Below, piece after piece: positions 1 through 47,259 of a stretch of 58,517 nucleotides of DNA. Every line of letters starts with the position of its first letter. The stretch's first letter is position 1. Below the pieces are notes generated by a model. That model was not told where the DNA came from. It ran no database searches and saw nothing but the letters and a program-made list of their open reading frames with translations. A program made the translations under genes and the position numbers. Source of the stretch: Bacillota bacterium (lineage in GTDB: Bacteria; Bacillota; Clostridia; Acetivibrionales; JANLFN01); assembly GCA_030705825.1 (NCBI GenBank), contig JAUZPR010000006.1, forward strand, positions 1 to 58,517, read 5' to 3'.

Positions 1-1248
1 ACATCACAGCCGGAATACTGGGACAAGGTGGAAAAGCTTGTGGGTGGAGCTCCTTCAACTTTAAACCTGATATTTCCGGAAGTCTATCTTGGTAAAATTG
101 ATGAAAATAAAAAGATTGAAAAAATTAATAGTACAATGAAGAAATACCTGTCGGGCGGTATTTTATCTGCCCAAAAAACCGGATTTGTTCTTATAGACAG
201 GAAAACGTGCAAGGTTGCTTCAAGAAAAGGTTTAATAATGGCTGTTGACCTTGAAATGTATGATTACAGCAAAGGCTCCCAGTCTCTTATCAGGGCAACC
301 GAAGCAACTGTAGTTGACAGGCTTCCTCCCAGAATCAAAATCAGGGAAAATGCTTCGGTGGAAATTCCCCATATAATGATTCTTATTGATGACGAGGAAA
401 AAACAGTTATTGAGCCGATTGCAGAAAAAAAGGCATGTTCGGAAAAACTCTACGATTTTGAATTGATGCTTGGTGGTGGACATGTCAGAGGCTGCAGCAT
501 AACAGATGCTGAAGATATAGAATCTATATTGGGAGCACTTTCCAGGCTTGCAGAACCATCCTCTTTTTCAAAAAGGTATAATGTACAAAACAAAGGTGTC
601 CTGCTATTTGCAGTAGGTGACGGAAATCACTCCCTTGCAGCGGCAAAGGGGCACTGGGAAAATGTAAAGAAAAGCCTTTTACCTGAAGAAATTGAAACCC
701 ATCCGGCAAGATTTGCTTTGGTGGAGCTTGTTAATGTCCATGACCAAGGTCTTGAATTTGAGCCTATACACAGGGTCGTTTTTAACGTTGACCCCGAAGA
801 TCTGCTTGAGAAGATGCAAAAATACTTCAAGAATTATTCAGGAGTAACCTTAAGATACTTCAATAATCCAAATCAAATGAATGACGAAGCCAAAAAGCTG
901 TCAAACCCGGGCAAGGCACACCTAATCAGGTTTGTAACCTCAAAGTCACAGGGAATTATAGCAGTTGAACAACCCAAATACAACCTTGAGGTAGGTACTC
1001 TTCAGTCATTTCTTGATGATTACTTGAAAAGCTACAGTACCTGCAAAATAGATTACATCCATGGTGATAATACTGTTATTGATTTGGGCTCAAGAGACAA
1101 TTCTATAGGCTTCCTGCTTCCGGTAATGAAGAAGGAGGATCTTTTCAAAACGGTGATTCTGGAAGGCGTCCTGCCTCGGAAGACCTTCTCCATGGGAGAA
1201 GCCGAGGAGAAAAGGTATTATCTTGAATGTAGGAAAATAGTTAAATAA
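1..1248 (+). CDS. DUF1015 family protein, 5'-truncated by the window edge
   Basis: Frame is open from base 1 (TSQPEYWDKVEKL...). Motifs IRATEATVVDRLPPR, AVGDGNHSLA and LPRKTFSMG are typical of DUF1015. Confidence 0.85.
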   Translation, partial: TSQPEYWDKVEKLVGGAPSTLNLIFPEVYLGKIDENKKIEKINSTMKKYLSGGILSAQKTGFVLIDRKTCKVASRKGLIMAVDLEMYDYSKGSQSLIRATEATVVDRLPPRIKIRENASVEIPHIMILIDDEEKTVIEPIAEKKACSEKLYDFELMLGGGHVRGCSITDAEDIESILGALSRLAEPSSFSKRYNVQNKGVLLFAVGDGNHSLAAAKGHWENVKKSLLPEEIETHPARFALVELVNVHDQGLEFEPIHRVVFNVDPEDLLEKMQKYFKNYSGVTLRYFNNPNQMNDEAKKLSNPGKAHLIRFVTSKSQGIIAVEQPKYNLEVGTLQSFLDDYLKSYSTCKIDYIHGDNTVIDLGSRDNSIGFLLPVMKKEDLFKTVILEGVLPRKTFSMGEAEEKRYYLECRKIVK

Positions 1249-1270
1249 AATCTCTAAATCTTGTTTATAG

Positions 1271-1301
1271 CAGGGGTGAACACCAATTCACCCCTGTTTT
1301 T
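1271..1301. terminator. Intrinsic terminator between convergent genes
   Basis: Perfect 10-bp stem caggggtgaa/ttcacccctg followed by a T-run on +. Confidence 0.8.
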
Positions 1302-1307
1302 ATTTCT

Positions 1308-2720
1308 TTAACCCTTATTTATGAATTTCTTAAATTCTTCTAAAAATGCCATCCTGCCTATTGTATTTTTTCTTACCGAAGTCTTTAGTATATGAAATTC
1401 CCCGGTCAGAGTGGGAAGATTCCACTGAGCCTTTGATGAAAGGCTGTTAATTATTCCCGCAATACGTATCCAGTAAAGAACAAACCTGTATAAGGGCATA
1501 ACAAAGCAAATATACCAGTGTTTCCTTAAATATCTTCTTACTGAATTCTGACCCTTAAGATACCGTTCTGAAACTGCCAGATACAAAAAGCTGTTCAACA
1601 GATAGGCCGTATAAAGCAGAAGGTTGGCACCTATCAACAGCTGTAGCGGATAATTTATAAAAAACAGATATATCAAGGCAAAGAACCAGATAAATCTCGG
1701 AAATGCCAAGGTGTGATCCGATACTATTATCCTCATGGAAAACTTTTTAAAATAATCTTTTATACTTCCGGTATGCATTTCTTTAAATAGGCTTGCAACC
1801 TCCAGTTCTCCCCTCTGCCACCTTTGTCTCTGAATATAGAGTTTATCAATACTTTCTATTGGATCAGTATATAAAAAGGCATTGCTGCATAGCTTAATCT
1901 TACCCCCTGCGAATCTTCTTATCTGGAAGGTCATATGGGTATCTTCCCCAATAGTATCGGAATTGTATAGCTGCGTTTTAAGCAGGGCTTCCTTTCTGAA
2001 GCACGAAAATGCCCCCGACATGGTAAAAATGGAATCGGTCATAGATTGAAAGCTTCTGCCCACAAGAAAGGTTTCGGTATATTCAAACAATTCACATTTT
2101 TGAATAAGCTTCATACCCTTACTTTTACTCTGTTCTATACATACCGGGTCAATCAGTACAACTCCTGTCATGCAGTTTATTTTTTTATCGGATTCAAACT
2201 TAGCGGCCACGCTTCTTATTGCATCCTTATCTAGCCATCCGTCACTGTCTATATTTATCAGATACCTTGCAGAACTGCTGAAAATACCCTTGTTCAGTGC
2301 TTTGGACTTACCTCTGCCTGAATTTAACCACCTGATTTTCATATTTGGATGAGCCCGCTGAAAACCTTGGAAAACCTCAAAACTGCCATCTTCTTTTCCA
2401 TTATTAACAAGAATAATCTCTATCCTGCTGTTCGGATAGTTTTGACCTGCAATGGAGTCAAGACATTTTCCAATTGTATTTACTGAATTGAAGACAGGCA
2501 CTATTACCGTCACTTCAGGCATGAAGTCAAGCTTTATATGCTTATTTTTCCGGTATCCTGAAGCTGTAAAAATTCCGCTTACAATACCCGTGATTATCTC
2601 CCATATCAAAGGTATGACAAGCCAGACGCTCCAGAATATGAACTGCTGCAAAATCCTACCTGTTTCCACCAGCCGGCTCACCAACCTTCTGCTTAAGAAT
2701 ATGGGGCTTTGTAAAAACAA
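1308..2720 (-). CDS. XrtG-associated GT2 glycosyltransferase (TIGR03111-like); true start probably GTG at 2669
   Basis: GT2 motifs IVPVFN, NIDSD, GEDT and QRQRW; N- and C-terminal TM helices; overlaps xrtG. Confidence 0.85.
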   Translation of the reverse strand: MFLQSPIFLSRRLVSRLVETGRILQQFIFWSVWLVIPLIWEIITGIVSGIFTASGYRKNKHIKLDFMPEVTVIVPVFNSVNTIGKCLDSIAGQNYPNSRIEIILVNNGKEDGSFEVFQGFQRAHPNMKIRWLNSGRGKSKALNKGIFSSSARYLINIDSDGWLDKDAIRSVAAKFESDKKINCMTGVVLIDPVCIEQSKSKGMKLIQKCELFEYTETFLVGRSFQSMTDSIFTMSGAFSCFRKEALLKTQLYNSDTIGEDTHMTFQIRRFAGGKIKLCSNAFLYTDPIESIDKLYIQRQRWQRGELEVASLFKEMHTGSIKDYFKKFSMRIIVSDHTLAFPRFIWFFALIYLFFINYPLQLLIGANLLLYTAYLLNSFLYLAVSERYLKGQNSVRRYLRKHWYICFVMPLYRFVLYWIRIAGIINSLSSKAQWNLPTLTGEFHILKTSVRKNTIGRMAFLEEFKKFINKG

Positions 2721-3243
2721 TATAATAAAGAATAACTGTCAGTATAAAAAAGAGGAATCTGGCAATTACAGTATGACTTATAAAGAATGCCGCCGGCCCG
2801 AATAATTTAACAATGCTGCATATCACAAATATTCTTGCAACATTTGCAGCAAAAATATAGAAAGCACCCGCCGCTGCAAGAAACCCCTTCATCCTCCATG
2901 AATACAATGGGTAGAATGACAGAAGGCAAATATATACCAATGTTTCAATTATTCCCGAGCATTCATAGTCTATAAAAAAGGAAACTGCCTGCAGCTTGTA
3001 ATTAACGGTAACTGACAAATAGCCGGGGTAAGCCGATATCATTCCTGTAACCTTTCCGAATATATACATAATATAGGTAACACCATACCCGAGATAACTC
3101 TCGATAGTACCGGTTCCCATGTACATAAGCAACAGGAACATACCTATGCTGCCGGCTGCGAACAGGAAGAAAGCCATGTTTTTTCTTTTAAGCAAAACCA
3201 ACAAAAGAATCCATAATATTAATAGAAAGGATACAAATATCAC
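2656..3243 (-). CDS. xrtG: Exosortase family protein XrtG
   Basis: Multi-TM protein with the exosortase triad: Cys in IDYECSG, Arg in NVARI, His in SHT. Gene context matches. Confidence 0.85.
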   Translation of the reverse strand: MIFVSFLLILWILLLVLLKRKNMAFFLFAAGSIGMFLLLMYMGTGTIESYLGYGVTYIMYIFGKVTGMISAYPGYLSVTVNYKLQAVSFFIDYECSGIIETLVYICLLSFYPLYSWRMKGFLAAAGAFYIFAANVARIFVICSIVKLFGPAAFFISHTVIARFLFFILTVILYYIVFTKPHILKQKVGEPAGGNR

Positions 3244-3992
3244 TCTGGCTCACCTCTTCGTTTTCTCTTTCCAACCGACATAACAGAGATAAATCCTGAT
3301 AAAACTATTAAGACCGATACTGAAGCAGTAAAAACTGGAAAGGTCGAGATAGTGGAAATGGTTATATACCCCGAATCCGGAGCCCTGTCTCTGCCGCTCT
3401 GATAATAAAGTTCAACCTGATATCCGCTTTTAGTGCTGCTTGCCAGCTGTGAAAGCGGTATATAAAATCCAACCCTGTTTGCCGTATTTTCATCATCCCC
3501 CCATAACCCTCCGGTACTCCAAAGGTATTGTCCCTTTTCGTTAAGAAGAAGTACAATAACCCATCTTGTATAAGGATGGTAAAAAACATAAGCTGTCCTG
3601 TTTCCCGAATCGGTTTTAAAATTTGCCGAAAACAGCCAATAGGTATATTTATATGAGTTTGAATTAAAATTTCCGATTATGTCCTTATAAAGGTCATCAT
3701 ATTTCAAATCCTTTTCTTTAGAATTTCCTTTAGTATTGTTTCCCGATCCCTGCTGCCTTTCACAGTACAGATAAAGGTTCCCTGCGGACGAGTCAGGATA
3801 CCATTTCATATTTACCATGTCCATAAAAGAGGACTCATCCCCTTTAGGATCGGATAATGAGGGTTTGTCAGCCCAGTCTGAAAAATTACCGTCAAGAGTG
3901 ATTCCCGATGCAGCCATTACCGGTATAGGAACATACAAAATACATATAACAACAAAAATCACAATAATAAATTTTTTCATAATCGGTTTCAA
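3240..3992 (-). CDS. Secreted protein with a C-terminal sorting signal (Firmicu-CTERM-like), probable XrtG substrate
   Basis: Signal peptide (MKKFII...VMA), ITLDGNFSDW motif, C-terminal STFP + TM helix + basic KRKRR tail; directly upstream of xrtG. Confidence 0.7.
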   Translation of the reverse strand: MKPIMKKFIIVIFVVICILYVPIPVMAASGITLDGNFSDWADKPSLSDPKGDESSFMDMVNMKWYPDSSAGNLYLYCERQQGSGNNTKGNSKEKDLKYDDLYKDIIGNFNSNSYKYTYWLFSANFKTDSGNRTAYVFYHPYTRWVIVLLLNEKGQYLWSTGGLWGDDENTANRVGFYIPLSQLASSTKSGYQVELYYQSGRDRAPDSGYITISTISTFPVFTASVSVLIVLSGFISVMSVGKRKRRGEPE

Positions 3993-38642: not shown

Positions 38643-41033
38643 ATGATAAAAATTAAAGGAGGGACGAAATTGAAAGGAAATATAAAACGATTCAGAAAAC
38701 AAATAGTTATTGCGGCAGTTATCATCCTCCCTCTAGTCTACAGCTTTTTCTATCTTGATGCTTTTTGGGATCCATACAGCAGGCTTAGTGAGCTACCTGT
38801 TGCATTAATCAACCAGGATACGGGTGCTGTAGTTAACGGAGAACAAAGAAATCTGGGAAATGAGATAGCTGATCAATTAAAGGGAGATAAAAACCTGAAG
38901 TGGACATTGACAAATAGTTCGGAGGCTTCAAAAGGTATTTCCAAGGGAAAATACTATGCGGAAATAACCATACCTTCCGACTTTTCCAGAAAAATTTCAA
39001 GCGCCGGCAATGTAGACAAAACTCAGGGCATAATAATGTACCAGCCGGAAGAAAAGAGAAATTTTCTGGCGGCCCAGGTCATGAACAGGGTTATGATTGA
39101 ATTTAAAGATAACGTTTCGCAGAAAGTTACAAAGGAGATTGTTAAAAACGTTATTGACAAAATAAATCAGATTCCCGGGAGTCTTAAGGATTTAAACGAC
39201 GGACTTGGAAAAATGGCTTCCGGAACAAAAGATATTTCAGGCGGTATCAGTAATTTAAGAAATAATCAAATTCAATTCAACAATGGACTGACAAAATTAA
39301 AAGCTGGTCTTGCAGATGCAAAAAGCGGCAGCATTCAGCTTTATACAGGCAGTAAATCGTTGGCTTCATATGAAAATACTTTTTATACAAGCCTTAATGC
39401 AGGAGTACCTGATATATTAAAGCTGTCCCAAGGGTCAAACCTGTTTTATAAAAGCCTGCAGACTTTGAACAGCGGTTTGGATAATCTCAATAAAAACCTC
39501 AGCAAACCGGATACAGGATTATCCGCAATTGCAGATAACGCAGTCAAATTCGGAAACGGTTTGCAGCAGTTCAATAAAGGCTTCAGTGCCATTAGGTCGG
39601 GTACCGGGAATTTGTACGATTCGACAAAAGCATTTTCATCAAATATAAAGACATATTCCGAGGGATTGGATCAGTATCTGGACAGCGTTAGTTCATTAAC
39701 TACTGCGGACAAAAGTATTTCACAATTTTTGGCCGCTTATCTGAATTCTCATCCCGAAGCAATGTCTGATAAAAATATTCAGAATATCTTGAATATAACA
39801 AAGCAATCGGGAGGCTCTCTGGATAAAATCAACACTTCAGCCGGTATGCTGAAGACAAATATGGATACCCTGGTCAAAGCGTCACAGCAGCTTGAGGGTG
39901 GAACAAAAACCTTAAATGACGGCGTGACGGCTATAAATGACAATTCTGCAGCGCTGATTTCAGGTGCAGAACAGCTGAGCAGCGGAGTAAATCAAGCCGG
40001 TAAGTCATTAAGTGACCTTTCGGGTGCTGTAAATCAATTAGCCGGCGGTTCGGCACAATTGACGGGTGCCTACTCCCAAATTGACACAGGATTAAAAAAA
40101 TCGGCTCTAAGTCTTCAAGATGCAGCCAAAGCCGCAGGACTTCTTTCAGAAAACAGCAGTAAATTGGCTTCGGGCGCAAATCAGCTTAACTCAGGTATAG
40201 CAGCCGCATATAACGGCAGTGCGGAACTTAATGATAATGCTGTAAAATTTGCAGACGGCGAAAAAGATCTATTAGATGGAAGCAATCAGCTGGCAACAGG
40301 AATAAATACCATGCAGTCACAAATTACAACTAATATCGGCAGTATGGATGCTCTCAACGGTCTTGATAGTTTCGCAGCATCTCCAGTGAAGCTTGAGCAG
40401 TCGAGCATTGATCCTGTTCCAGATTACGGAACTGCTTTTTCTCCTTATTTTATATCGTTATCCCTTTGGGTCGGATCAATTTTGATTCTTATAATCATAT
40501 ACCTGGATCCGGATATAAACCTGAGAAGGCGGTATTCCAAGCTGCTGCATTCCGATATGAGGTTCCTTGGATTTGCACTGATTGGAATTGTTCAAGCAGT
40601 TGTACTTTCACTTGCTATAAAATTCGGTCTTAATCTGCATCCAAAGAGTGAACCCTTATTTTATCTGGTAACTATTTTGGTTTCACTGAGTTTTATTTCT
40701 GTAGTGGAATTTCTGGTTATACATCTTAAGGATGCAGGCAAATTCCTTGTAATGCTTCTTCTTATACTTCAGCTTACCAGCTGCGGCGGTACATTCCCGA
40801 TGGAACTGGTTCCCGGGTTCTTCAAGATAATCAAGCCATTCATGCCTATGACCTATTCGGTAAATGCATTGAAGGAGGCAATTTCAGGAGTGAATTACGG
40901 AGACTTGAACAAGAACATGCTGGTACTTGGCGGAATAATGGTGGTTTTCCTGGCAGGAAATGTACTACTGTCATGGGTCAAATCCACTAAAAATGAAGGT
41001 ATCGAAAATACATTGGAAGTACTTGATATATAG
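38643..41033 (+). CDS. YhgE/Pip family membrane protein
   Basis: AFWDPY...LPVALINQDTG, xxxLxxG heptad repeats, YGTAFSPYFISLSLWVG and GGTFP. Confidence 0.92.
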   Translation: MIKIKGGTKLKGNIKRFRKQIVIAAVIILPLVYSFFYLDAFWDPYSRLSELPVALINQDTGAVVNGEQRNLGNEIADQLKGDKNLKWTLTNSSEASKGISKGKYYAEITIPSDFSRKISSAGNVDKTQGIIMYQPEEKRNFLAAQVMNRVMIEFKDNVSQKVTKEIVKNVIDKINQIPGSLKDLNDGLGKMASGTKDISGGISNLRNNQIQFNNGLTKLKAGLADAKSGSIQLYTGSKSLASYENTFYTSLNAGVPDILKLSQGSNLFYKSLQTLNSGLDNLNKNLSKPDTGLSAIADNAVKFGNGLQQFNKGFSAIRSGTGNLYDSTKAFSSNIKTYSEGLDQYLDSVSSLTTADKSISQFLAAYLNSHPEAMSDKNIQNILNITKQSGGSLDKINTSAGMLKTNMDTLVKASQQLEGGTKTLNDGVTAINDNSAALISGAEQLSSGVNQAGKSLSDLSGAVNQLAGGSAQLTGAYSQIDTGLKKSALSLQDAAKAAGLLSENSSKLASGANQLNSGIAAAYNGSAELNDNAVKFADGEKDLLDGSNQLATGINTMQSQITTNIGSMDALNGLDSFAASPVKLEQSSIDPVPDYGTAFSPYFISLSLWVGSILILIIIYLDPDINLRRRYSKLLHSDMRFLGFALIGIVQAVVLSLAIKFGLNLHPKSEPLFYLVTILVSLSFISVVEFLVIHLKDAGKFLVMLLLILQLTSCGGTFPMELVPGFFKIIKPFMPMTYSVNALKEAISGVNYGDLNKNMLVLGGIMVVFLAGNVLLSWVKSTKNEGIENTLEVLDI

Positions 41034-41046
41034 GAGAATTTATAAC

Positions 41047-41080
41047 AAAGCCCGGAAATCCAATTGATTTCCGGGCTTTT
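41047..41080. terminator. Bidirectional intrinsic terminator
   Basis: aaagcccggaaatc/gatttccgggcttt stem. Confidence 0.85.
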
Positions 41081-41130
41081 CATATAAGCACGCCTCATAA
41101 TTCTGCATTTATTGTTTTTTGTTAAATAAC

Positions 41131-41349
41131 TTATTTTCTGCTGCCTATAACTTTAATCTGAACATCAAGGTTATCCAGCTTCTTCTATTTTATCAAACCT
41201 TACATCATGCTCTTCAAGCTTTTTTATAGTCTGAACCTGACATTCATATAAGGTTTTAATATCCGGCCTTACCTGATTTTCAATGGAAGACTCAATTTTC
41301 CCCAGTCCCTTATCCAAAGTATCAAATCTTTCCTTGGTTTCAGACCTGA
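41131..41349 (-). pseudogene. 5'-truncated, frameshifted remnant of a coiled-coil protein gene
   Basis: Reads RSETKERFDTLDKGLGKIESSIENQVRPDIKTLYE...HDVRFDKIEE, then after a frame change KLDNLDVQIKVIGSRK*; no start codon. Confidence 0.5.
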
Positions 41350-41495
41350 AGAGTCAGGTGAAATAGCAAGTTTCTTTCTAATCTCCCTAAAAGTATCTCC
41401 TTGCATAGCCATTCCTTTATGTCAGGCAGTCTTGGTAATATGTCCGAATCATATCGGCTTGTTTTATTTGGAATTCCTTTTCTACTACCACCCAT
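41340..41495 (-). pseudogene. Truncated, frameshifted phage-like HTH gene remnant (terminase-small-subunit-region type)
   Basis: RBS + MGGSRKGIPNKTSRYDSDILPRLPDIKEW, then after a frame change QGDTFREIRKKLAISPDS, breaking off at ~41350. Confidence 0.45.
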
Positions 41496-41534
41496 GTTCT
41501 CACCCCCTATAACAAAAAGAGACTTGTTATGGCT

Positions 41535-42719
41535 CTAATACTTTTTCGGGTTAAATCTTCCATTTTCATCATAATTGATTGATTGAGTATACCCACAAGC
41601 ATTCCAAATGCTATCAAATACAGGTCTAAGTAACAAATCAATTTCTGTATTAAAATCTTCAAGTATGATAACTTCTGAGCTCAATATTTCTCTATCTATT
41701 TTATATTCAATCCCTCTGTAAAAGTTAAAACTTTTTGGCATTTCATATCCTTTAACACCCGTTAATGTAATAAAAATAAAGTATGGCAACTCAACCTTAA
41801 CTTCTTTTAAAAAGTCAATATATTGCTTTGTACTTTTTATTAATGCTTCTTCGAATGCAACATATGGTATAAATTTTTGACTTTCATCTGCGCTAGATAG
41901 TAACGATGATTCAACAGCTTCAATAATCCCATTCTTATATAGTTGAGTATATGCATCCACTTTTCCAGCTTCTATTGCTTCTGAATATAATATCATTCCC
42001 TCAAAATTTATTCTCTTTCTCGATGCTCCGTAATATATGGTATTGAAGAACTGATTGTTAAATACACTTTTTATATCAATTTTTTCAGCCTTTATATTAA
42101 AAGCTGATATAGGAACTATTTGTAATACAATGTTTGATTTGGTATTTAGTCTCAATAATGTTTCACCAGCAACTATATTAGCAATTCTGTCATTTTTGAA
42201 ATTCTGTATTTTTTCACTTAATGATTCAGATAAAACAAATGCACTCCTAAGCTCATCCACATCAAGCTGGTATACCCCATTACTGCTTCTTGCGAAAAAT
42301 CTACTCCAATTTTGAAATGTGACACAATGTGGGCTACGCCAACTTTTTGGGATGCGAATTACTAATGCCTTTTTGTTATCAGCAACATCGATTGGTTGAA
42401 TTTTTATTCCTGGTATTCTTGGCTGAACTCCTTGTCTAACCAGATCTTCAATCCAACGAATTTTAGAGTCTATTTCTTCATTATAAATACCTATTATTTC
42501 AGCCGGTACACCATTCTCCTCTTTTATACCATAAATAATGTCTCCACCACTTGAATTAGCGAATGAAGTAATGTCCTTCAAGAATTCACGTTTATCACTA
42601 TCACTGTTGCCAGAAAACTTCTCTTTATAATCCAGTGTTTTCTTTTCAAGGACAGAATCATTTACCAATAGTAATAAATCATCTCTATTAATATTTTCTA
42701 TCGGTTTTTGAATCATCAC
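41535..42719 (-). CDS. Schlafen/AlbA_2 domain protein
   Basis: LEKKTLDYKE...EFLKDITSFANSSGGDIIYGIKE...PH...FFARS. Confidence 0.85.
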   Translation of the reverse strand: MMIQKPIENINRDDLLLLVNDSVLEKKTLDYKEKFSGNSDSDKREFLKDITSFANSSGGDIIYGIKEENGVPAEIIGIYNEEIDSKIRWIEDLVRQGVQPRIPGIKIQPIDVADNKKALVIRIPKSWRSPHCVTFQNWSRFFARSSNGVYQLDVDELRSAFVLSESLSEKIQNFKNDRIANIVAGETLLRLNTKSNIVLQIVPISAFNIKAEKIDIKSVFNNQFFNTIYYGASRKRINFEGMILYSEAIEAGKVDAYTQLYKNGIIEAVESSLLSSADESQKFIPYVAFEEALIKSTKQYIDFLKEVKVELPYFIFITLTGVKGYEMPKSFNFYRGIEYKIDREILSSEVIILEDFNTEIDLLLRPVFDSIWNACGYTQSINYDENGRFNPKKY

Positions 42720-42894
42720 TATTCAACTCCCTTCACCAAAATTTTACACTAATAGAAGAAGAATCACAACTGAAATAGAAATTCGTCCACTCTCAAATAA
42801 ACGTTTGCATCTATATCTCGTATAAGGTTTACTTTTGCGTCACCATATATTTGGGCATATACATAAATTCTAAATTAGAAGGCGATTGATATCA

Positions 42895-43035
42895 ATGAAA
42901 AGAGTATCAACAACATTAGAAACTAGCTCTGGAAGAAATGTAAAATTTCATGACAACTACAACAACCAAAATATGAGTAGACCACAGTTTGTTAAAGAAA
43001 TTAATAATGGAATACATCCGATAATTCGTTCGTAA
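42895..43035 (+). pseudogene. Truncated small protein gene (DUF3892-like, tentative)
   Basis: MKRVSTTLETSSGRNVKFHDNYNNQNMSRPQFVKEINNG; the expected C-terminal NPD/NNL part is missing. Confidence 0.45.
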
Positions 43036-43045
43036 TCTTCTTCCT

Positions 43046-43115
43046 ATACACCAAGTTGTTCATCAGTGTAATCCAGACCATCAATTTCCAACTTTAATCT
43101 CTGTAAATTTGTCAT
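43046..43115 (-). pseudogene. Truncated phage-like structural gene start
   Basis: Strong AAGGAGG RBS + MTNLQRLKLEIDGLDYTDEQLGV*; resembles N-termini of phage head-tail connector-type proteins. Confidence 0.4.
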
Positions 43116-43174
43116 GCTCTGACCCTCCTTTTCATATTTTGTAATAAAAAACTGGCTTTTACACCAGTTATACT

Positions 43175-44935
43175 TTAAACAACAATATTCAATTGCTTTA
43201 ATTTGTTCCTTAAATTCTGTATTGTTATTGGTTCATTAAAGAACCACTCAATTAAGTTTATCCCATTTTCCGTACAGAGTTTCTTTTTTCTATTATCTAA
43301 CTCAACACGTTTATTGAAGTCCTCTTCTCCACCAAAGTATTTTGTAGGCTCAAAGTGCTGTAATCCTTGATACTCGAAAGCACAATTTATTTCAGGTGCA
43401 AATACATCAATCCTTTGTGGTCTAAGCCAATTCGGAGAATACTGCATTGTAGCTTCTGGAAAGTTTTTCTTAATCAACTCAAACATTGCCGATTCAGATT
43501 TCCACTTTGATGGTATTACCTTTTCTAAAACCAATTTTTCTTCTATTTTCTTCAATGTATTCTTTAAAGCATCTTCATCTGACCATTGACCAATAGCATT
43601 AAAACAGTACATACACCTATCCAGCATCTTTTTTTGAATCCCAATAAGATAATCCTTAAGCTGTGATTTAAACACAAAGCCATGATGAGCCATTAATTTA
43701 TCTAATACATCCTCAATATAACGCCTAAAATCAATATTAAAAAATTCCTTAAAATGTTCACTATGTAAAGTATCACAATATTTAATCAAATATTTAATAT
43801 CTATACCATAAATTCTTATTCCATAAAGAACCTCTCTTAAAAAACCAATAGGTTTAAAATTATAAAGCATCAGTTCTAAATCCATCATCTGCTCTTTTGA
43901 ATATACTACTTGATGGTTTTCGGTGTCATCTAATGGGCATTCATTCTTAATGATTTCATGTTTCAATGCACATTTTGCCAGTTCACACGCTATATAGTAT
44001 CTTTTACTTGGAATTTTAGTGAAGTAAAACTTGAACTCATTTAAAGTAATATCATTGACTGCTTCTGCTTCCCTTTCTTTAGGTTGTAGATGTTTAGGCA
44101 AAAGAAAACTTGCATCAACTTCTTGGTTCGTAAGATTTACTCTTGTATCTTGCCAAAATCGGCTATCAACAGATTTTCTGCAAACAGTTTTTTCACCAAT
44201 ATCAAGAGAATAATTTATTAAACTAAGTTCTTCATTTTCATCTTCCAATTCATTTTTTATATACATAATACTATTTGATTTTTTATTATACTTATATTCA
44301 GACTTCGTAAATTTATCAATTAAGATTGGTCTTTCATTGGACACATAATATAAATCGCCATCCACAATTGTGTTTTTATATGGAGTGTAGCAAATAAAAC
44401 TTATTGTATCATTAGGGTTTTTTATTAATGTAATACTTATCCCATCAATTCTTTTAATTATCTCCTTGCTTTTATCTTCATTTAATGTATAAACATTTAA
44501 ATTATTATAGAAAAAGGCTAACATTTTTTCAGGTATTGCTTTTGTATAAAATACTTTTATATCTCCATTACCTTTTTGTATATATGCATAGTTTACATGT
44601 TCATCAATTATCTTGATATAACCATCTTTCGCAACACATAAGTCACCTGTTCTTTCTCGAAAGTCTCGCCTATATTCTCCTGATAGTTTCATATTTCTTA
44701 TAAAAACAATCGTAGACGTATCTGCTGATAAATAAACTACTTGAACATTTTTACCAAGTAGTAATGGATTGGAACTAATTCTCTTCAAATAGCATTCTGT
44801 GTCAAACTTATGGTAAATTAGAATACCTATCTCTCTGGAAAAGTAAAAGTCCTCCAATACATTTGTTGCTAATAGTCTTTTCTCATTTTTTTCATATATA
44901 AAAAGATTCTTTTCCTTGTCATACTCATATCTCAT
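43175..44935 (-). CDS. Hypothetical protein with a beta-repeat N-terminus and a C-terminal Vsr/DUF559-like PD-(D/E)XK endonuclease domain
   Basis: SKWKSE...QRIDVF...FEYQGLQHF...DNRKKKLC...LIEW; repeated GDL(C/Y)...ID units; RBS before ATG 44935. Confidence 0.75.
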   Translation of the reverse strand: MRYEYDKEKNLFIYEKNEKRLLATNVLEDFYFSREIGILIYHKFDTECYLKRISSNPLLLGKNVQVVYLSADTSTIVFIRNMKLSGEYRRDFRERTGDLCVAKDGYIKIIDEHVNYAYIQKGNGDIKVFYTKAIPEKMLAFFYNNLNVYTLNEDKSKEIIKRIDGISITLIKNPNDTISFICYTPYKNTIVDGDLYYVSNERPILIDKFTKSEYKYNKKSNSIMYIKNELEDENEELSLINYSLDIGEKTVCRKSVDSRFWQDTRVNLTNQEVDASFLLPKHLQPKEREAEAVNDITLNEFKFYFTKIPSKRYYIACELAKCALKHEIIKNECPLDDTENHQVVYSKEQMMDLELMLYNFKPIGFLREVLYGIRIYGIDIKYLIKYCDTLHSEHFKEFFNIDFRRYIEDVLDKLMAHHGFVFKSQLKDYLIGIQKKMLDRCMYCFNAIGQWSDEDALKNTLKKIEEKLVLEKVIPSKWKSESAMFELIKKNFPEATMQYSPNWLRPQRIDVFAPEINCAFEYQGLQHFEPTKYFGGEEDFNKRVELDNRKKKLCTENGINLIEWFFNEPITIQNLRNKLKQLNIVV

Positions 44936-44952
44936 TATGCCCCCACCATTTT

Positions 44953-46347
44953 TCAAATAATACCTACTCTCCATTGGTATGTTTCAAATTTATACTTTGA
45001 ACTATCAAAAATATTATTAATAATTGTTACAATAACATCATCACTACAATCTGCCAATATGTTTTCCACCCTATAAATAGAGTACCGCTTACCCTCATTT
45101 ATCAATTTTTCTGCAACTTTCCTTTCATGTTCAGATATATAGAAAGGCAATCCGACATTTTCAGATGTTTTGACTTCAATAAAAATCTCAGTTCCATCCA
45201 ACTCAAATGATAAAATATCATAACCATTGGTTTCATCATCAGACTTACTCTCGAGCATGTAACAATAATCAGTATTCTTCAATTTTTCAAACTCTCTATC
45301 AAATACAAACGCTTCTCCCAAATCCCCTATCTCAATTTGCTTTTTATGTCTACTAAGATAGTCAGTTTTTAAGTACTTTTTCTTAAGTTGCTCAAAAGTA
45401 TAAATTGCAGATAAATTTGTTTTCGGCTCATTAGATTCTATTTGCTCTTGTTCAATTTCATCTATACTGTATTTAGTGTTTTTTTTTAGTTCCTCTGAAC
45501 ATTTCTTGCAAACTATTCTTCCGTTTACTGAAACCCAGTTTTCAAAATTATTCTTGTATGCTTGCTCACAGTTAAAGCATACAATTCTTACTGCATCTCG
45601 GGTATTCTTTATTTCTGTGGGTGTGAGATTATCTAGTCCTACCATATTACCTAAATTTTTAATACACTTATCTAAGTCTCCAAAACCGTTTTTATTCCTT
45701 TTGTGATACTCGTACCAGAATTCCTGACAATTTTCAGGTAAAACTATTTCATTACCCTCGCTGTCTAATACGCCTTTCTCAGTGTAAGAATCCCTTTTTA
45801 TTTCTCTAATATATACTGGTAATAAATTTGTTTCAAACAATAAGTACCAAGCGACAAAGCATCTTACTATATTTTTTCGTTCTACTGTCTGCTTTACTAA
45901 ATCTTCAATGTCATTGAGTTTACCAAAATCTATTATTTTCTTTTTTGGTTCATGAGAAGTTTCCACTACAATTTTATTTTCTTTCACACCATATATTTTT
46001 TTATCAAAATAGTTCTTTTTGTCTGCTTTTATCCAAATATCATCAAATCTAGTATCATTAATTATGTCATAAGCGTACAAGTACTCAAAAAAGGTTTTAA
46101 TAAAAGTGCCCTTTTTACTTTTTGTATTTTCTTCCTCAATTAACTCATTGATAAAATTAAAATCCTCCATTGTCAGGTTCTTAATATCGTACTTTTCAAT
46201 AAAGTAAAATAAAAAACCCAAAGCACTCCTATACCCTCGGAAATCTTTATACAATTTAAAGAAATTATCTATATGAAGTTTACTTTCTAAAGTAAACTTA
46301 GGTTCAATGATTTTAAATGGATATATTGACTGATTCTTTTTAGCCAC
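44953..46347 (-). CDS. DUF3883 PD-(D/E)XK nuclease with a Zn ribbon and a degenerate integrase-like N-terminus
   Basis: GDLGEAFV...GYDILSF...IFIEVKT...FYISEHE; CFNC...CKKC. Confidence 0.8.
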   Translation of the reverse strand: MAKKNQSIYPFKIIEPKFTLESKLHIDNFFKLYKDFRGYRSALGFLFYFIEKYDIKNLTMEDFNFINELIEEENTKSKKGTFIKTFFEYLYAYDIINDTRFDDIWIKADKKNYFDKKIYGVKENKIVVETSHEPKKKIIDFGKLNDIEDLVKQTVERKNIVRCFVAWYLLFETNLLPVYIREIKRDSYTEKGVLDSEGNEIVLPENCQEFWYEYHKRNKNGFGDLDKCIKNLGNMVGLDNLTPTEIKNTRDAVRIVCFNCEQAYKNNFENWVSVNGRIVCKKCSEELKKNTKYSIDEIEQEQIESNEPKTNLSAIYTFEQLKKKYLKTDYLSRHKKQIEIGDLGEAFVFDREFEKLKNTDYCYMLESKSDDETNGYDILSFELDGTEIFIEVKTSENVGLPFYISEHERKVAEKLINEGKRYSIYRVENILADCSDDVIVTIINNIFDSSKYKFETYQWRVGII

Positions 46348-46434
46348 ACTTGACCACTCCCAATAAATATTTCACATCATAGCATCATAGAGGCTTGTGA
46401 GTCAAAACCTTCCTTATCCTTTGATTTTAAAAAT

Positions 46435-46710
46435 TTAAATTAGAATTAGTGCTACGATTATGATTAATGTAAGTAATAAAACAAAAACAGATAAGCAACC
46501 GACTGAACTTGTTGGAGTAGCCCTCTTTCTTTCTATTTCTCTAAGTCTCTGCTTAGCATATTTGTTGACAGTACTTTCTTTTGGCTTGATTAATTTATAA
46601 AATTCATCATCGGACAAATAGTTATAAACATCTCGTTTCAACTTTTCATTATGCTTTTTCATTTTACTGTAACTTATACTAAAACTACCATATCCTCTTG
46701 CCATTACCAT
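46435..46710 (-). CDS. Small hypothetical protein with a C-terminal TM helix
   Basis: GAGGT RBS-like sequence; basic N-terminus and hydrophobic C-terminus. Confidence 0.55.
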   Translation of the reverse strand: MVMARGYGSFSISYSKMKKHNEKLKRDVYNYLSDDEFYKLIKPKESTVNKYAKQRLREIERKRATPTSSVGCLSVFVLLLTLIIIVALILI

Positions 46711-46892
46711 ACCTCACAGGCATAAATGTTTTTATGTGTGCACATTTTAACTATCTGCCAGAACCTTACATTCAAATCCTTGATTGTAGAATCATGTTAT
46801 CTAGTAGCAATACCTTGTAACATATTACCATTATATCATAACTTTTGGATAAATAGCGCCTATATTCGTCATCTTAGATTTAATTTAAATAG

Positions 46893-46930
46893 AAAAAAGC
46901 ACCCTGTAATATCTATTACAGGGTGCTTTT
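46893..46930 (-). terminator. Terminator of the tRNA operon
   Basis: aaaagcaccctgtaat/attacagggtgctttt stem abutting the tRNA-Lys CCA end. Confidence 0.85.
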
Positions 46931-47005
46931 GGTGAACCATCCGCGACTCGAACGCGGGACACCTTAATTAAAAGTCAAGTGCTCTGCCAACTGAGCTAAT
47001 GGTCC
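46930..47005 (-). tRNA. tRNA-Lys(UUU)
   Basis: GGACCATTAGCTCAGTTGGCAGAGCACTTGACTTTTAATTAAGGTGTCCCGCGTTCGAGTCGCGGATGGTTCACCA folds as a cloverleaf. Confidence 0.96.
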
Positions 47006-47008
47006 GTG

Positions 47009-47085
47009 TGGCTGGGATGGCTGGACTCGAACCAACGAAATGCCAGAGTCAAAGTCTGGTGCCTTACCGGCTTGGCTACATCCCA
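47009..47085 (-). tRNA. tRNA-Gln(UUG)
   Basis: TGGGATGTAGCCAAG...CCAGACTTTGACTCTGG...GGTTCGAGTCC...CCA. Confidence 0.96.
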
Positions 47086-47106
47086 ATATATAAAGTTTTG
47101 ATTTTA

Positions 47107-47176
47107 GAGGCCGGATACCAGATGCAGGAAAAGCGTAAACCTTATTCGCGTCTTCCGACGTCTGGTATCCGGCCTC
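47107..47176. repeat. Long hairpin in the His-Gln tRNA spacer
   Basis: Perfect 16-bp arms gaggccggataccaga/tctggtatccggcctc. Confidence 0.7.
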
Positions 47177-47181
47177 ATTTT

Positions 47182-47259
47182 TGGGGTGATTAGTGGGACT
47201 CGAACCCACGGCCTCCAGGGCCACAACCTGGCGCTCTAACCAACTGGGCTATAACCACC
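47182..47259 (-). tRNA. tRNA-His(GUG) with encoded G-1
   Basis: G-GTGGTTATAGCCCAGTTGG...CCAGGTTGTGGCCCTGG...GGTTCGAGTCC...CACCCCA. Confidence 0.96.

Follow-up and report, generated by a model that had tools for sequence, protein, structure and literature searches.

A predicted recombinase-dead integrase module joined to a DUF3883 nuclease across a poly-A tract: a candidate slippage-gated defence protein of Bacillota

The gene and its setting

The gene described here lies on the minus strand of a 58,517 nt stretch of DNA (the window) from contig JAUZPR010000006.1 of a Bacillota bacterium (assembly GCA_030705825.1). It encodes a protein that joins a predicted tyrosine-recombinase-like N-terminal module, a zinc ribbon and a DUF3883 nuclease domain, and a run of nine adenines marks the junction between ribbon and linker (Table 1). 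In the open reading frame (ORF) list of the window it appears as a 464 amino acid (aa) frame with a GTG start at 44953..46347, and the conservation of its N-terminus (MAKK..) across relatives in the family alignment supports the assigned start. A search of a 5.8-billion-protein collection returned 26 full-length relatives with 27-46% identity. A first-pass annotation, made from the letters of the window, had drawn attention to this gene, and every string that it quoted (YRSAL, LFYF, LTMEDF, IKTFFEYL, YLLFETNLLPVYIREIKRDSY, VGLDNLTPTEIKNTR, CFNC and CKKC) is present in the translation of this ORF.

The gene sits in a stretch of low GC content at about 41-47 kb (GC 0.29-0.32 versus about 0.40 elsewhere in the window), which adjoins a tRNA-Lys/Gln/His cluster at 46930-47258 (tRNA-Lys at 46930-47005) and holds four minus-strand ORFs: one of 91 aa, the gene under study, one of 599 aa and a Schlafen/AlbA_2 gene of 394 aa.

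Table 1. Positions of the gene, its predicted parts and the features next to it (TR, tyrosine recombinase; pLDDT, predicted local distance difference test).
Feature	Position	Strand	Remarks
Whole gene	44953..46347	-	464 aa; fused ("ON") allele of the family
Core-binding (SAM-like) domain, predicted	45991..46320	-	residues 10-119; helices, pLDDT above 90
Truncated dead TR catalytic core, predicted	45589..45930	-	residues 140-253; box I helix, beta hairpin, box II helix
C4 zinc ribbon	45478..45588	-	residues 254-290; C257, C260, C280, C283 and a helix ending LKKN
A9 homopolymer	45479..45487	-	ribbon/linker junction, codons CTA AAA AAA AAC; in frame in the window
Flexible linker	45352..45477	-	residues 291-332; low-confidence; homologous linker sequence in relatives
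DUF3883/NOV_C PD-(D/E)XK domain	44956..45351	-	residues 333-464; E345, E352, D377, E391, K393
Promoter-like site TTGACT-18-TATGAT with TG	46376..46405	-	about 30 nt upstream of the start of the gene
Downstream co-oriented gene	43175..44935	-	586 aa from M14; listed ORF 599 aa from 44974

A truncated tyrosine-recombinase fold at the N-terminus

Profile comparison and structure prediction show residues 1-253 to have the predicted fold of a tyrosine recombinase (TR), with a core-binding domain followed by a truncated catalytic domain. The assignment is made because the hhalign result and the consistency of the match lists across methods agree. The family profile, aligned by hhalign with five genuine integrases that are encoded near the homologues, matched over residues 37-215 (Prob 94.5%, E 8.2e-8). 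A profile search of PDB sequences matched the Int N-terminal domain 2kiw (E 0.006) and gave three weak collinear stretches on XerA (5hxy), and HMMER placed the protein on the same XerA in the box II register found by hhalign, in a match that is itself non-significant (E 0.56). The Phage_int_SAM_4 family was matched by 6 of 48 family members, with a best E of 5e-4.

The structure comparisons gave lists of the same character. A model of residues 1-295 (pLDDT 90.4) returned 41 listed Foldseek matches in the PDB, comprising 27 TRs, four TR-fold repressors, four topoisomerases IB and six unrelated proteins; the top match was XerA 4a8e (prob 0.99), and the repressors among those listed were MrpR 8a0a, YopR 8bj6 and SroF 9rgl/9rd5. 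Against BFVD the top match was a phage integrase (E 6.4e-4), and 35 of the 36 named rows were integrases or TRs. In the ESM Atlas, a search by structure returned TR clusters only (8 of 8, TM 0.43-0.47), while a search by features had XerS, XerC and MrpR clusters among its matches. The first-pass annotation had suggested this fold for the N-terminal region and had named profile and Foldseek comparisons as the way to check the idea; both returned a TR fold.

Used as a single sequence, residues 1-255 matched nothing in Pfam, NCBIfam, PHROGs or PDB sequences. PF00589 gave no match at E up to 1 for the window protein and is outside the 25 most-matched families of the 48 members. An exhaustive phmmer search of the same residues against 1.84 billion representatives returned 34 proteins, all of the same family and none longer than 500 aa, which indicates that the N-terminal module occurs only together with the ribbon.

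A zinc ribbon in place of the catalytic segment

In the hhalign register, L176 takes the place of the box I arginine, and an extended alignment puts T244 at the box II histidine and K247 at the box II arginine. Over 48 members none of the three columns is held to the catalytic residue: the first reads S12/P11/D5/G4 and others, the second K9/S7/R7/Q7 and others, and the third K24/T9/R5 and others. In the model the TR-like domain stops at the helix of residues 243-253 and is immediately followed by the ribbon; the His/Trp-III and tyrosine-bearing segment is missing, with the zinc ribbon in its place. The four ribbon cysteines (C257, C260, C280 and C283) are invariant in 48 of 48 members, and the ribbon is modelled as four strands and a helix. 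Because the Arg-His-Arg residues and the whole tyrosine-bearing C-terminal segment have been lost, the N-terminal module, judged by alignment and model, cannot be a recombinase.

These results bear directly on the three motif readings of the first-pass annotation. Its box I without arginine was borne out, in the window protein and as an unconserved column in the 48 members, and so was its description of CFNC..CKKC without a catalytic-tyrosine helix, given that the C4 ribbon directly follows the box II helix. Its replacements of histidine by threonine and of arginine by lysine hold for the window protein (T244, K247) and fail as a family trait, since these columns vary over the 48 members. As a side observation, residues 254-290 and their relatives match Pfam DUF4428, an uncharacterised ribbon family, in 14 of the 48 members (best E 2.5e-5).

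The DUF3883 nuclease domain

Residues 344-430 match Pfam NOV_C (DUF3883, PF13020) with E 2.2e-13 and 50.5 bits, above the gathering cut-off of 22.1, and E345, E352, G375-Y-D-I-L-S380 and I390-E-V-K393 are invariant in 27 of 27 members. In the PD-(D/E)XK superfamily the D...E-x-K residues form the catalytic motif, and with D377, E391 and K393 all conserved the domain is intact, as had been annotated at first pass. An AlphaFold model of the full protein (pLDDT 80.9) shows the four-stranded ribbon with its helix, a disordered linker (residues 302-332), in which pLDDT falls under 50 over 302-315 and 327-332, and a nuclease domain of the alpha/beta type. A full-length homodimer prediction scored 0.32 (mark 0.42).

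Foldseek matched the modelled nuclease domain to Hjc Holliday-junction resolvases (TMt 0.44-0.58), HincII and SPARDA; the Hjc matches are best taken as indicating a PD-(D/E)XK fold in the model, not a junction-resolving function. The PADLOC models PDC-S36, PD-T4-1 and TmtA (Tiamat) match the C-terminal half in 27 of 27 members. More distant DUF3883 proteins carry other Pfam domains, namely PF11907, PF14338, PF12102 and PF01381; we take the first three to be DNA readers of type IV restriction enzymes (DUF3427, Mrr_N and McrB-type domains). On that reading, the DUF3883 nuclease would be a portable effector that different DNA readers aim.

A poly-A tract at the ribbon/linker junction

The most unusual feature of the gene is the homopolymer at the junction of its two halves, which the first-pass annotation had missed. 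It is the sole A9/T9 run on either strand of the 58.5 kb, while dinucleotide shuffles of the window contain 7.8 +/- 4.3 such runs, with at least one in all 100 shuffles. A genome scan for relatives gave 80 loci, 17 of which carry the N-terminal module (our labels L001 to L019 refer to such loci). A tract of A8-A10 stands at the junction in 15 of these 17 loci and is absent from L006 and L009. Across the loci, A/T runs of at least eight occur at 0.81 per kb within the gene versus 0.14 per kb outside it, and 12 of 17 runs of at least nine fall within the gene, whose share of the bases is 8.8%. When synonymous codons were resampled according to each gene's own usage, in the window and 16 loci (all but L012), a run of at least eight was expected in 6.3 of 17 sequences and observed in 14 (P ~5e-6 if the sequences are independent).

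Read from the window sequence, a one-base slip in either direction at the tract would end the protein within 2-6 codons and so yield a short form of natural size. According to Baranov et al. (2005, PMC1088944), many bacteria show selection against slippage once a run has reached nine A or T, and a conserved 9A together with a conserved ORF organisation in non-identical homologues is taken there as the criterion of functional slippage. As far as sequence comparison and that study go, this combination is what the family presents. We propose, on the basis of the sequences, that the A tract is a slippage or phase-variation switch.

Fused and split alleles

The gene is an uninterrupted single ORF in 10 of the 17 loci, including L004, whose ORF is cut short at its 5' end, and is split into two adjacent ORFs in six (L011, L013, L014, L016, L017 and L019). 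In the split loci the upstream ORF, of 284-310 aa, encodes the TR-like module and the ribbon, and the other ORF encodes the DUF3883 domain. Without exception the break falls where the ribbon helix ends (LKK), and a tract of A8-A10 is found there in split and fused loci alike. Relative to the upstream ORF, the nuclease of all six is read in the +2 (equivalent to -1) frame. This frame is open from a point within the tract or shortly ahead of it and encodes the conserved linker, and its first 54 codons in L014 and 42 in L017 include no start codon. The upstream frame of four of these loci terminates with AAC and an immediately following stop codon. Short forms also occur naturally among the proteins, in that 11 of the 34 proteins with the N-terminal module are 269-310 aa long and end a few residues after the ribbon helix (LKK). 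Because the modules occur also as adjacent ORFs, the comparison supports a functional link between them.

The two arrangements are interleaved in the family. Four Bacillaceae-type split members share 40-57% identity in the N-terminal module and 58-65% in the C-terminal one, and the fused L005 nests among them. On a tree of 16 rows (the window and 15 loci, L004 and L012 being left out), the fused or split label requires four changes, at least three of which are forced by well-supported branches. The closest comparison comes from the fused L004 (A9; positions 1104-3302) and the split L011 (A8; positions 394-2591), which are 98.8% identical over 2199 nt with 25 mismatches, and whose single gap lies inside the tract. 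These comparative data support a change of the tract at the DNA level.

The pair just mentioned comes from metagenome-assembled genomes (MAGs) labelled Tissierellaceae (L004) and Muribaculaceae, of the Bacteroidota (L011), and identity as high as this across such labels points to a binning error or a recent transfer. L004 has an rve-type transposase ORF just upstream and was matched by the query from residue 95 on only; this copy may be truncated at its 5' end. In Paenibacillus solani (L012:9977-11388) the gene is in three pieces, with one break at an A8 tract and another further upstream, and because of this second break it may be a true pseudogene.

Distribution and neighbours of the relatives

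All loci with the N-terminal module are from Bacillota, except for L011 from the MAG labelled Muribaculaceae. Within 4.5 kb of the 17 loci, integrase, serine recombinase or transposase genes are found in nine: tyrosine integrases in L003, L006, L008, L010 and L017, serine recombinases in L003, L005, L008, L010 and L013, and transposases in L002, L004 and L005. Strong defence neighbours are PDC-S28 in L001, an AriA/Old-like ATPase in L005, AriA with AriB in L012 and, in L016, a CBASS cyclase with a 4TM effector together with PDC-S14, while weaker defence-type neighbours are AbiJ in L006, an ATPase fragment in L017 and STAND and Fic proteins in L019. These neighbour sets fit the cargo of mobile or defence islands. 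The AriA and AriB pair of L012 is PARIS-like and lies 2-4 kb upstream of the family gene.

No gene was found to be conserved beside the family gene in the 17 loci, and in a clustering of the neighbours no family occurred in more than five of them; the idea of a multi-gene system was dropped for this reason. The 599-aa, 394-aa and 91-aa ORFs of the window's island were considered as conserved partners and rejected, as tblastn did not place them beside homologues.

Comparison with known systems

PDC-S36 (PDLC05008), a candidate single-gene system of PADLOC, resembles the protein in its ribbon, linker and DUF3883 nuclease. Positions 79-248 of its 280-position profile align to residues 259-427 of the window protein (E 4.8e-21), but the first 258 residues of the protein fall outside the model and the first 78 positions of the model are unmatched; since the match is partial, full membership of PDC-S36 was rejected. 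No publication naming PDC-S36 was found in the open-access literature or bioRxiv, and its status is that of a candidate. Identity as a tyrosine recombinase was likewise rejected because the catalytic features are absent. PD-T4-1 (a single-gene defence of E. coli), Tiamat/TmtA and HmaA share the DUF3883/NOV_C effector domain, but have other N-terminal parts, with ATPase or other domains, and match in the C-terminal domain only. According to the preprint 10.64898/2026.09.30.754977, supercoiled DNA is nicked by the isolated DUF3883 domain of HmaA, and Tiamat acts as a DNase.

Recombinase-dead TR folds have precedents as DNA binders. The SPbeta-like phage repressors MrpR/YopR and SroF are of this kind in the sections of the reports that we use (PMC10516654; 10.1101/2025.11.27.690993), and for MrpR the first of these describes a TR fold with loss of the recombinase function. 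They are, however, phage-encoded stand-alone repressors with a full-length CAT-like domain, lacking both ribbon and nuclease, and MrpR_N_CB and MrpR_C_cat are neither among the Pfam hits of the window protein (E up to 1) nor among the 25 most-matched families of the 48 members. TnsF of the Tn6022-like Tn7 elements, as characterised in the parts of PMC10293859 cited here, is a sequence-specific target selector that consists of an inactivated TR domain and zinc-binding modules. Compared by description, the window protein shares this combination, but the zinc fingers of TnsF are N-terminal, and TnsF recruits a transposase in trans and carries no nuclease.

The split alleles have a further counterpart in their reading frames. 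In IS3 elements, a DNA-binding ORF (OrfA) is followed by a catalytic ORF in the -1 frame; the two overlap at a slippery, A-rich run, so that both a short binder and a long fusion (OrfAB) are produced. The binder ORF and -1-frame enzyme ORF that meet at an A run in the split alleles are laid out in the same way; the difference is that many alleles of the family, that of the window included, are in frame at the DNA level, and that no stimulatory RNA structure was found. The first-pass annotation had stated that no described system has this architecture. This was too broad for the C-terminal half, which fits PDC-S36 in 27 of 27 members, and in view of the published dead-TR DNA selectors; it stands for the fusion, as we found no description of a TR-nuclease fusion or of the junction tract in the open-access literature and bioRxiv.

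A proposed function and its alternatives

On balance, we lean towards seeing the protein as a rare Bacillota nuclease borne on mobile islands, which would probably act in defence or against mobile elements, would be aimed by a dead integrase, and would have its long form gated by homopolymer slippage. The dead TR module and the ribbon would together serve as a DNA-binding, target-selecting clamp, a role suggested by the precedents of MrpR/YopR/SroF and TnsF; a specific sequence, a DNA structure and a modification are all candidates for what the clamp recognises. The first-pass annotation had proposed a sensor of DNA or recombination intermediates that targets or activates the nuclease; the observations give recombination intermediates no preference over these candidates. 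The PD-(D/E)XK effector would nick or cut the clamp-bound DNA, and the likely outcome would be the restriction of phages or rival mobile elements. The A tract would set the ratio between a nuclease-bearing long form and a DNA-binding-only short form of about 290 aa, through replication slippage (phase variation) and probably also, as is plausible, through RNA-polymerase slippage or -1 ribosomal frameshifting on A_AAA_AAC, in an arrangement that resembles the OrfA/OrfAB of IS3 type. By analogy, such a protein may act like the known nuclease-plus-reader defence proteins and the dead-TR DNA selectors.

A number of observations weigh against this proposal. The fold statistics are modest: no PDB match is below E 1e-3 (the best are 2.9e-3 to 8.2e-3), TM values are 0.19-0.36 in the PDB with a root-mean-square deviation (rmsd) above 10 A and all below 0.5 in the Atlas, and no Pfam integrase model reaches threshold for the protein or the 48 members; a large rmsd is usual for two-domain clamps. 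The P value of the tract assumes independent sequences, and the tract follows in part from the conserved LKK(N/K) motif in AT-rich genes. No RNA structure was found 3' of the tract in eight sequences (z -1.2 to +0.8), so that a classic stimulated -1 frameshift is not supported, and an RNA fold was rejected as a frameshift stimulator. Where genomes are drafts or MAGs, a difference of a single A can stem from misassembly. The N-terminal module has no tblastn match in 50,697 phage and 72,556 plasmid records, and the defence neighbours, strong in 4 of 17 loci and in 7 of 17 with the weaker ones, are raw counts that carry no background rate. Finally, the near-orphan 586-aa gene downstream, probably co-transcribed with the gene in the window, is left unaccounted for by the proposal.

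A doubt about the tract itself leads to a different reading of the whole gene, in which the run of A is a non-regulatory by-product of a conserved Lys-Lys in AT-rich genomes, the split loci are pseudogenes or assembly errors, and the nuclease is a constitutive one-piece enzyme. AAA makes up 49-85% of the lysine codons in the family genes, so codon usage alone would give a run of at least eight in a good part of them, several of the loci are MAGs or drafts, the gene of L012 looks like a pseudogene, and no frameshift-stimulating RNA fold was found. Yet the runs exceed that codon-usage expectation (14 of 17 against 6.3), and the window keeps its only A9/T9 here where shuffles hold 7.8. Pseudogenes or errors would also hardly explain why all six splits fall at the same site into the same -1 frame, with the catalytic motifs intact and the conserved linker open from the tract, why four split members that are 40-57% identical in the N-terminal module have kept the arrangement, why a complete genome (NZ_CP130958.1) holds one of the split loci, or why short forms occur in 11 of 34 independent protein clusters. 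We therefore judge this account improbable. Much further down the scale, to the point of being very hard to credit, is the idea that the N-terminus is an unrelated helical DNA- or protein-binding domain with a chance resemblance to TRs. It would suit the failure of residues 1-255, as a single sequence, to match Pfam, NCBIfam or PDB sequences, and the weak Foldseek E-values with TM below 0.4, but it is at odds with independent methods that are collinear over both sub-domains (hhalign, Foldseek against the PDB and BFVD, the Atlas, Phage_int_SAM_4 and 2kiw), and with the XerA match by HMMER, which though non-significant (E 0.56) falls in the same register.

The integrase ancestry of the N-terminal module seen by hhalign would equally suit a protein that serves the mobile element carrying it, in which the nuclease cuts at an att-like or other specific site picked out by the dead integrase, for homing, for maintenance or addiction, or to exclude competitors. 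Of the 17 loci, 9 have a recombinase or transposase gene within 4.5 kb, the window copy is in a low-GC island next to a tRNA cluster, its probably co-transcribed neighbour matches phage proteins and homing-endonuclease phrogs, and TnsF (PMC10293859) is an example of a dead TR domain that can choose the target of a transposon. Against such service stand the absence of a neighbour conserved with the gene, of att-like direct repeats flanking the island and of copies in the phage and plasmid collections, together with the frequency of defence genes among the neighbours, and we regard it as unlikely, if less so than a by-product tract. More speculative than the slippage-gated defence nuclease that we favour, and put forward only tentatively, is an extension of it to a self-regulating immune nuclease with two products. 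Slippage would then always give both the short binder and the long fusion, the short form would restrain or guide the long one as in OrfA/OrfAB, and changes of the tract at the DNA level would switch lineages between high and low nuclease. Control of a toxic effector in this manner is not described in the literature searched, and it would be a new exaptation of an integrase.

Should the slippage-gated defence nuclease prove real, it would be the third independent exaptation of a dead TR as a DNA-targeting module, after the phage repressors and TnsF, and here the module would be wired directly to a nuclease. It would also offer a one-gene model of a potentially self-toxic defence nuclease restrained by a slippery homopolymer between its targeting and effector modules. 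About one third of the family members would then be annotated wrongly, either as pseudogenes or as two genes without a connection, and a scan of the PADLOC type would detect the C-terminal half only. As the family is small, with 34 representative clusters and all but one genome locus in Bacillota, its importance would come from the mechanism and not from prevalence.

Other features of the island

The promoter-like site upstream of the gene has the top score of the region (10/12), as a consensus match only, and the region overall is not enriched in such sites (40 found versus 31.3 +/- 5.9 in shuffles). Terminator-like hairpins were found only after tRNA-Lys and at 43150-43169, past the 599-aa ORF. 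Because there is no terminator-like site between them, the gene and the 599-aa (586-aa) ORF are probably co-transcribed in the window, as judged from such signals. In the latter, GGAGGGGGA precedes M14, and M14 at 44935 is the probable true start. Residues 314-597 of the 599-aa ORF match phrog_34504 (E 8e-47), and its last 100 residues or so match "HNH/homing endonuclease" phrogs. The 586-aa protein is otherwise a near-orphan: a homologue search of the protein collection gave itself and one weak match, the ESM Atlas gave no usable match, and no meaningful match came from searching its C-terminus against PDB sequences.

No integrase gene was found in the island (about 41000-47000), and no att-like direct repeats were detected at its ends beyond short matches at chance level, so that the island has the appearance of an insertion that is old or has decayed. 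Between the tRNA cluster and the gene lies the 91-aa ORF (46435-46710, minus strand), which has a hydrophobic C-terminal tail, is without a family match and is not conserved beside homologues. At its N-terminus the 394-aa ORF (41535-42719, minus strand) carries a Schlafen/AlbA_2 domain (Pfam E 2.1e-17); it also matches PADLOC PDC-S50 weakly (E 1.4e-7) and is a second defence-type gene in the island. Next to it, at 41171-41534 on the minus strand, are three overlapping open frames that look like a single gene broken by frameshifts; two of them start MGGSRKGIPNKTSRYDS.. and KGMAMQGDTFREIRKKLAIS.., and the third is a coiled-coil-like tail. This remnant, which has no Pfam hit, may represent a mobile-element gene that has decayed at the edge of the island.

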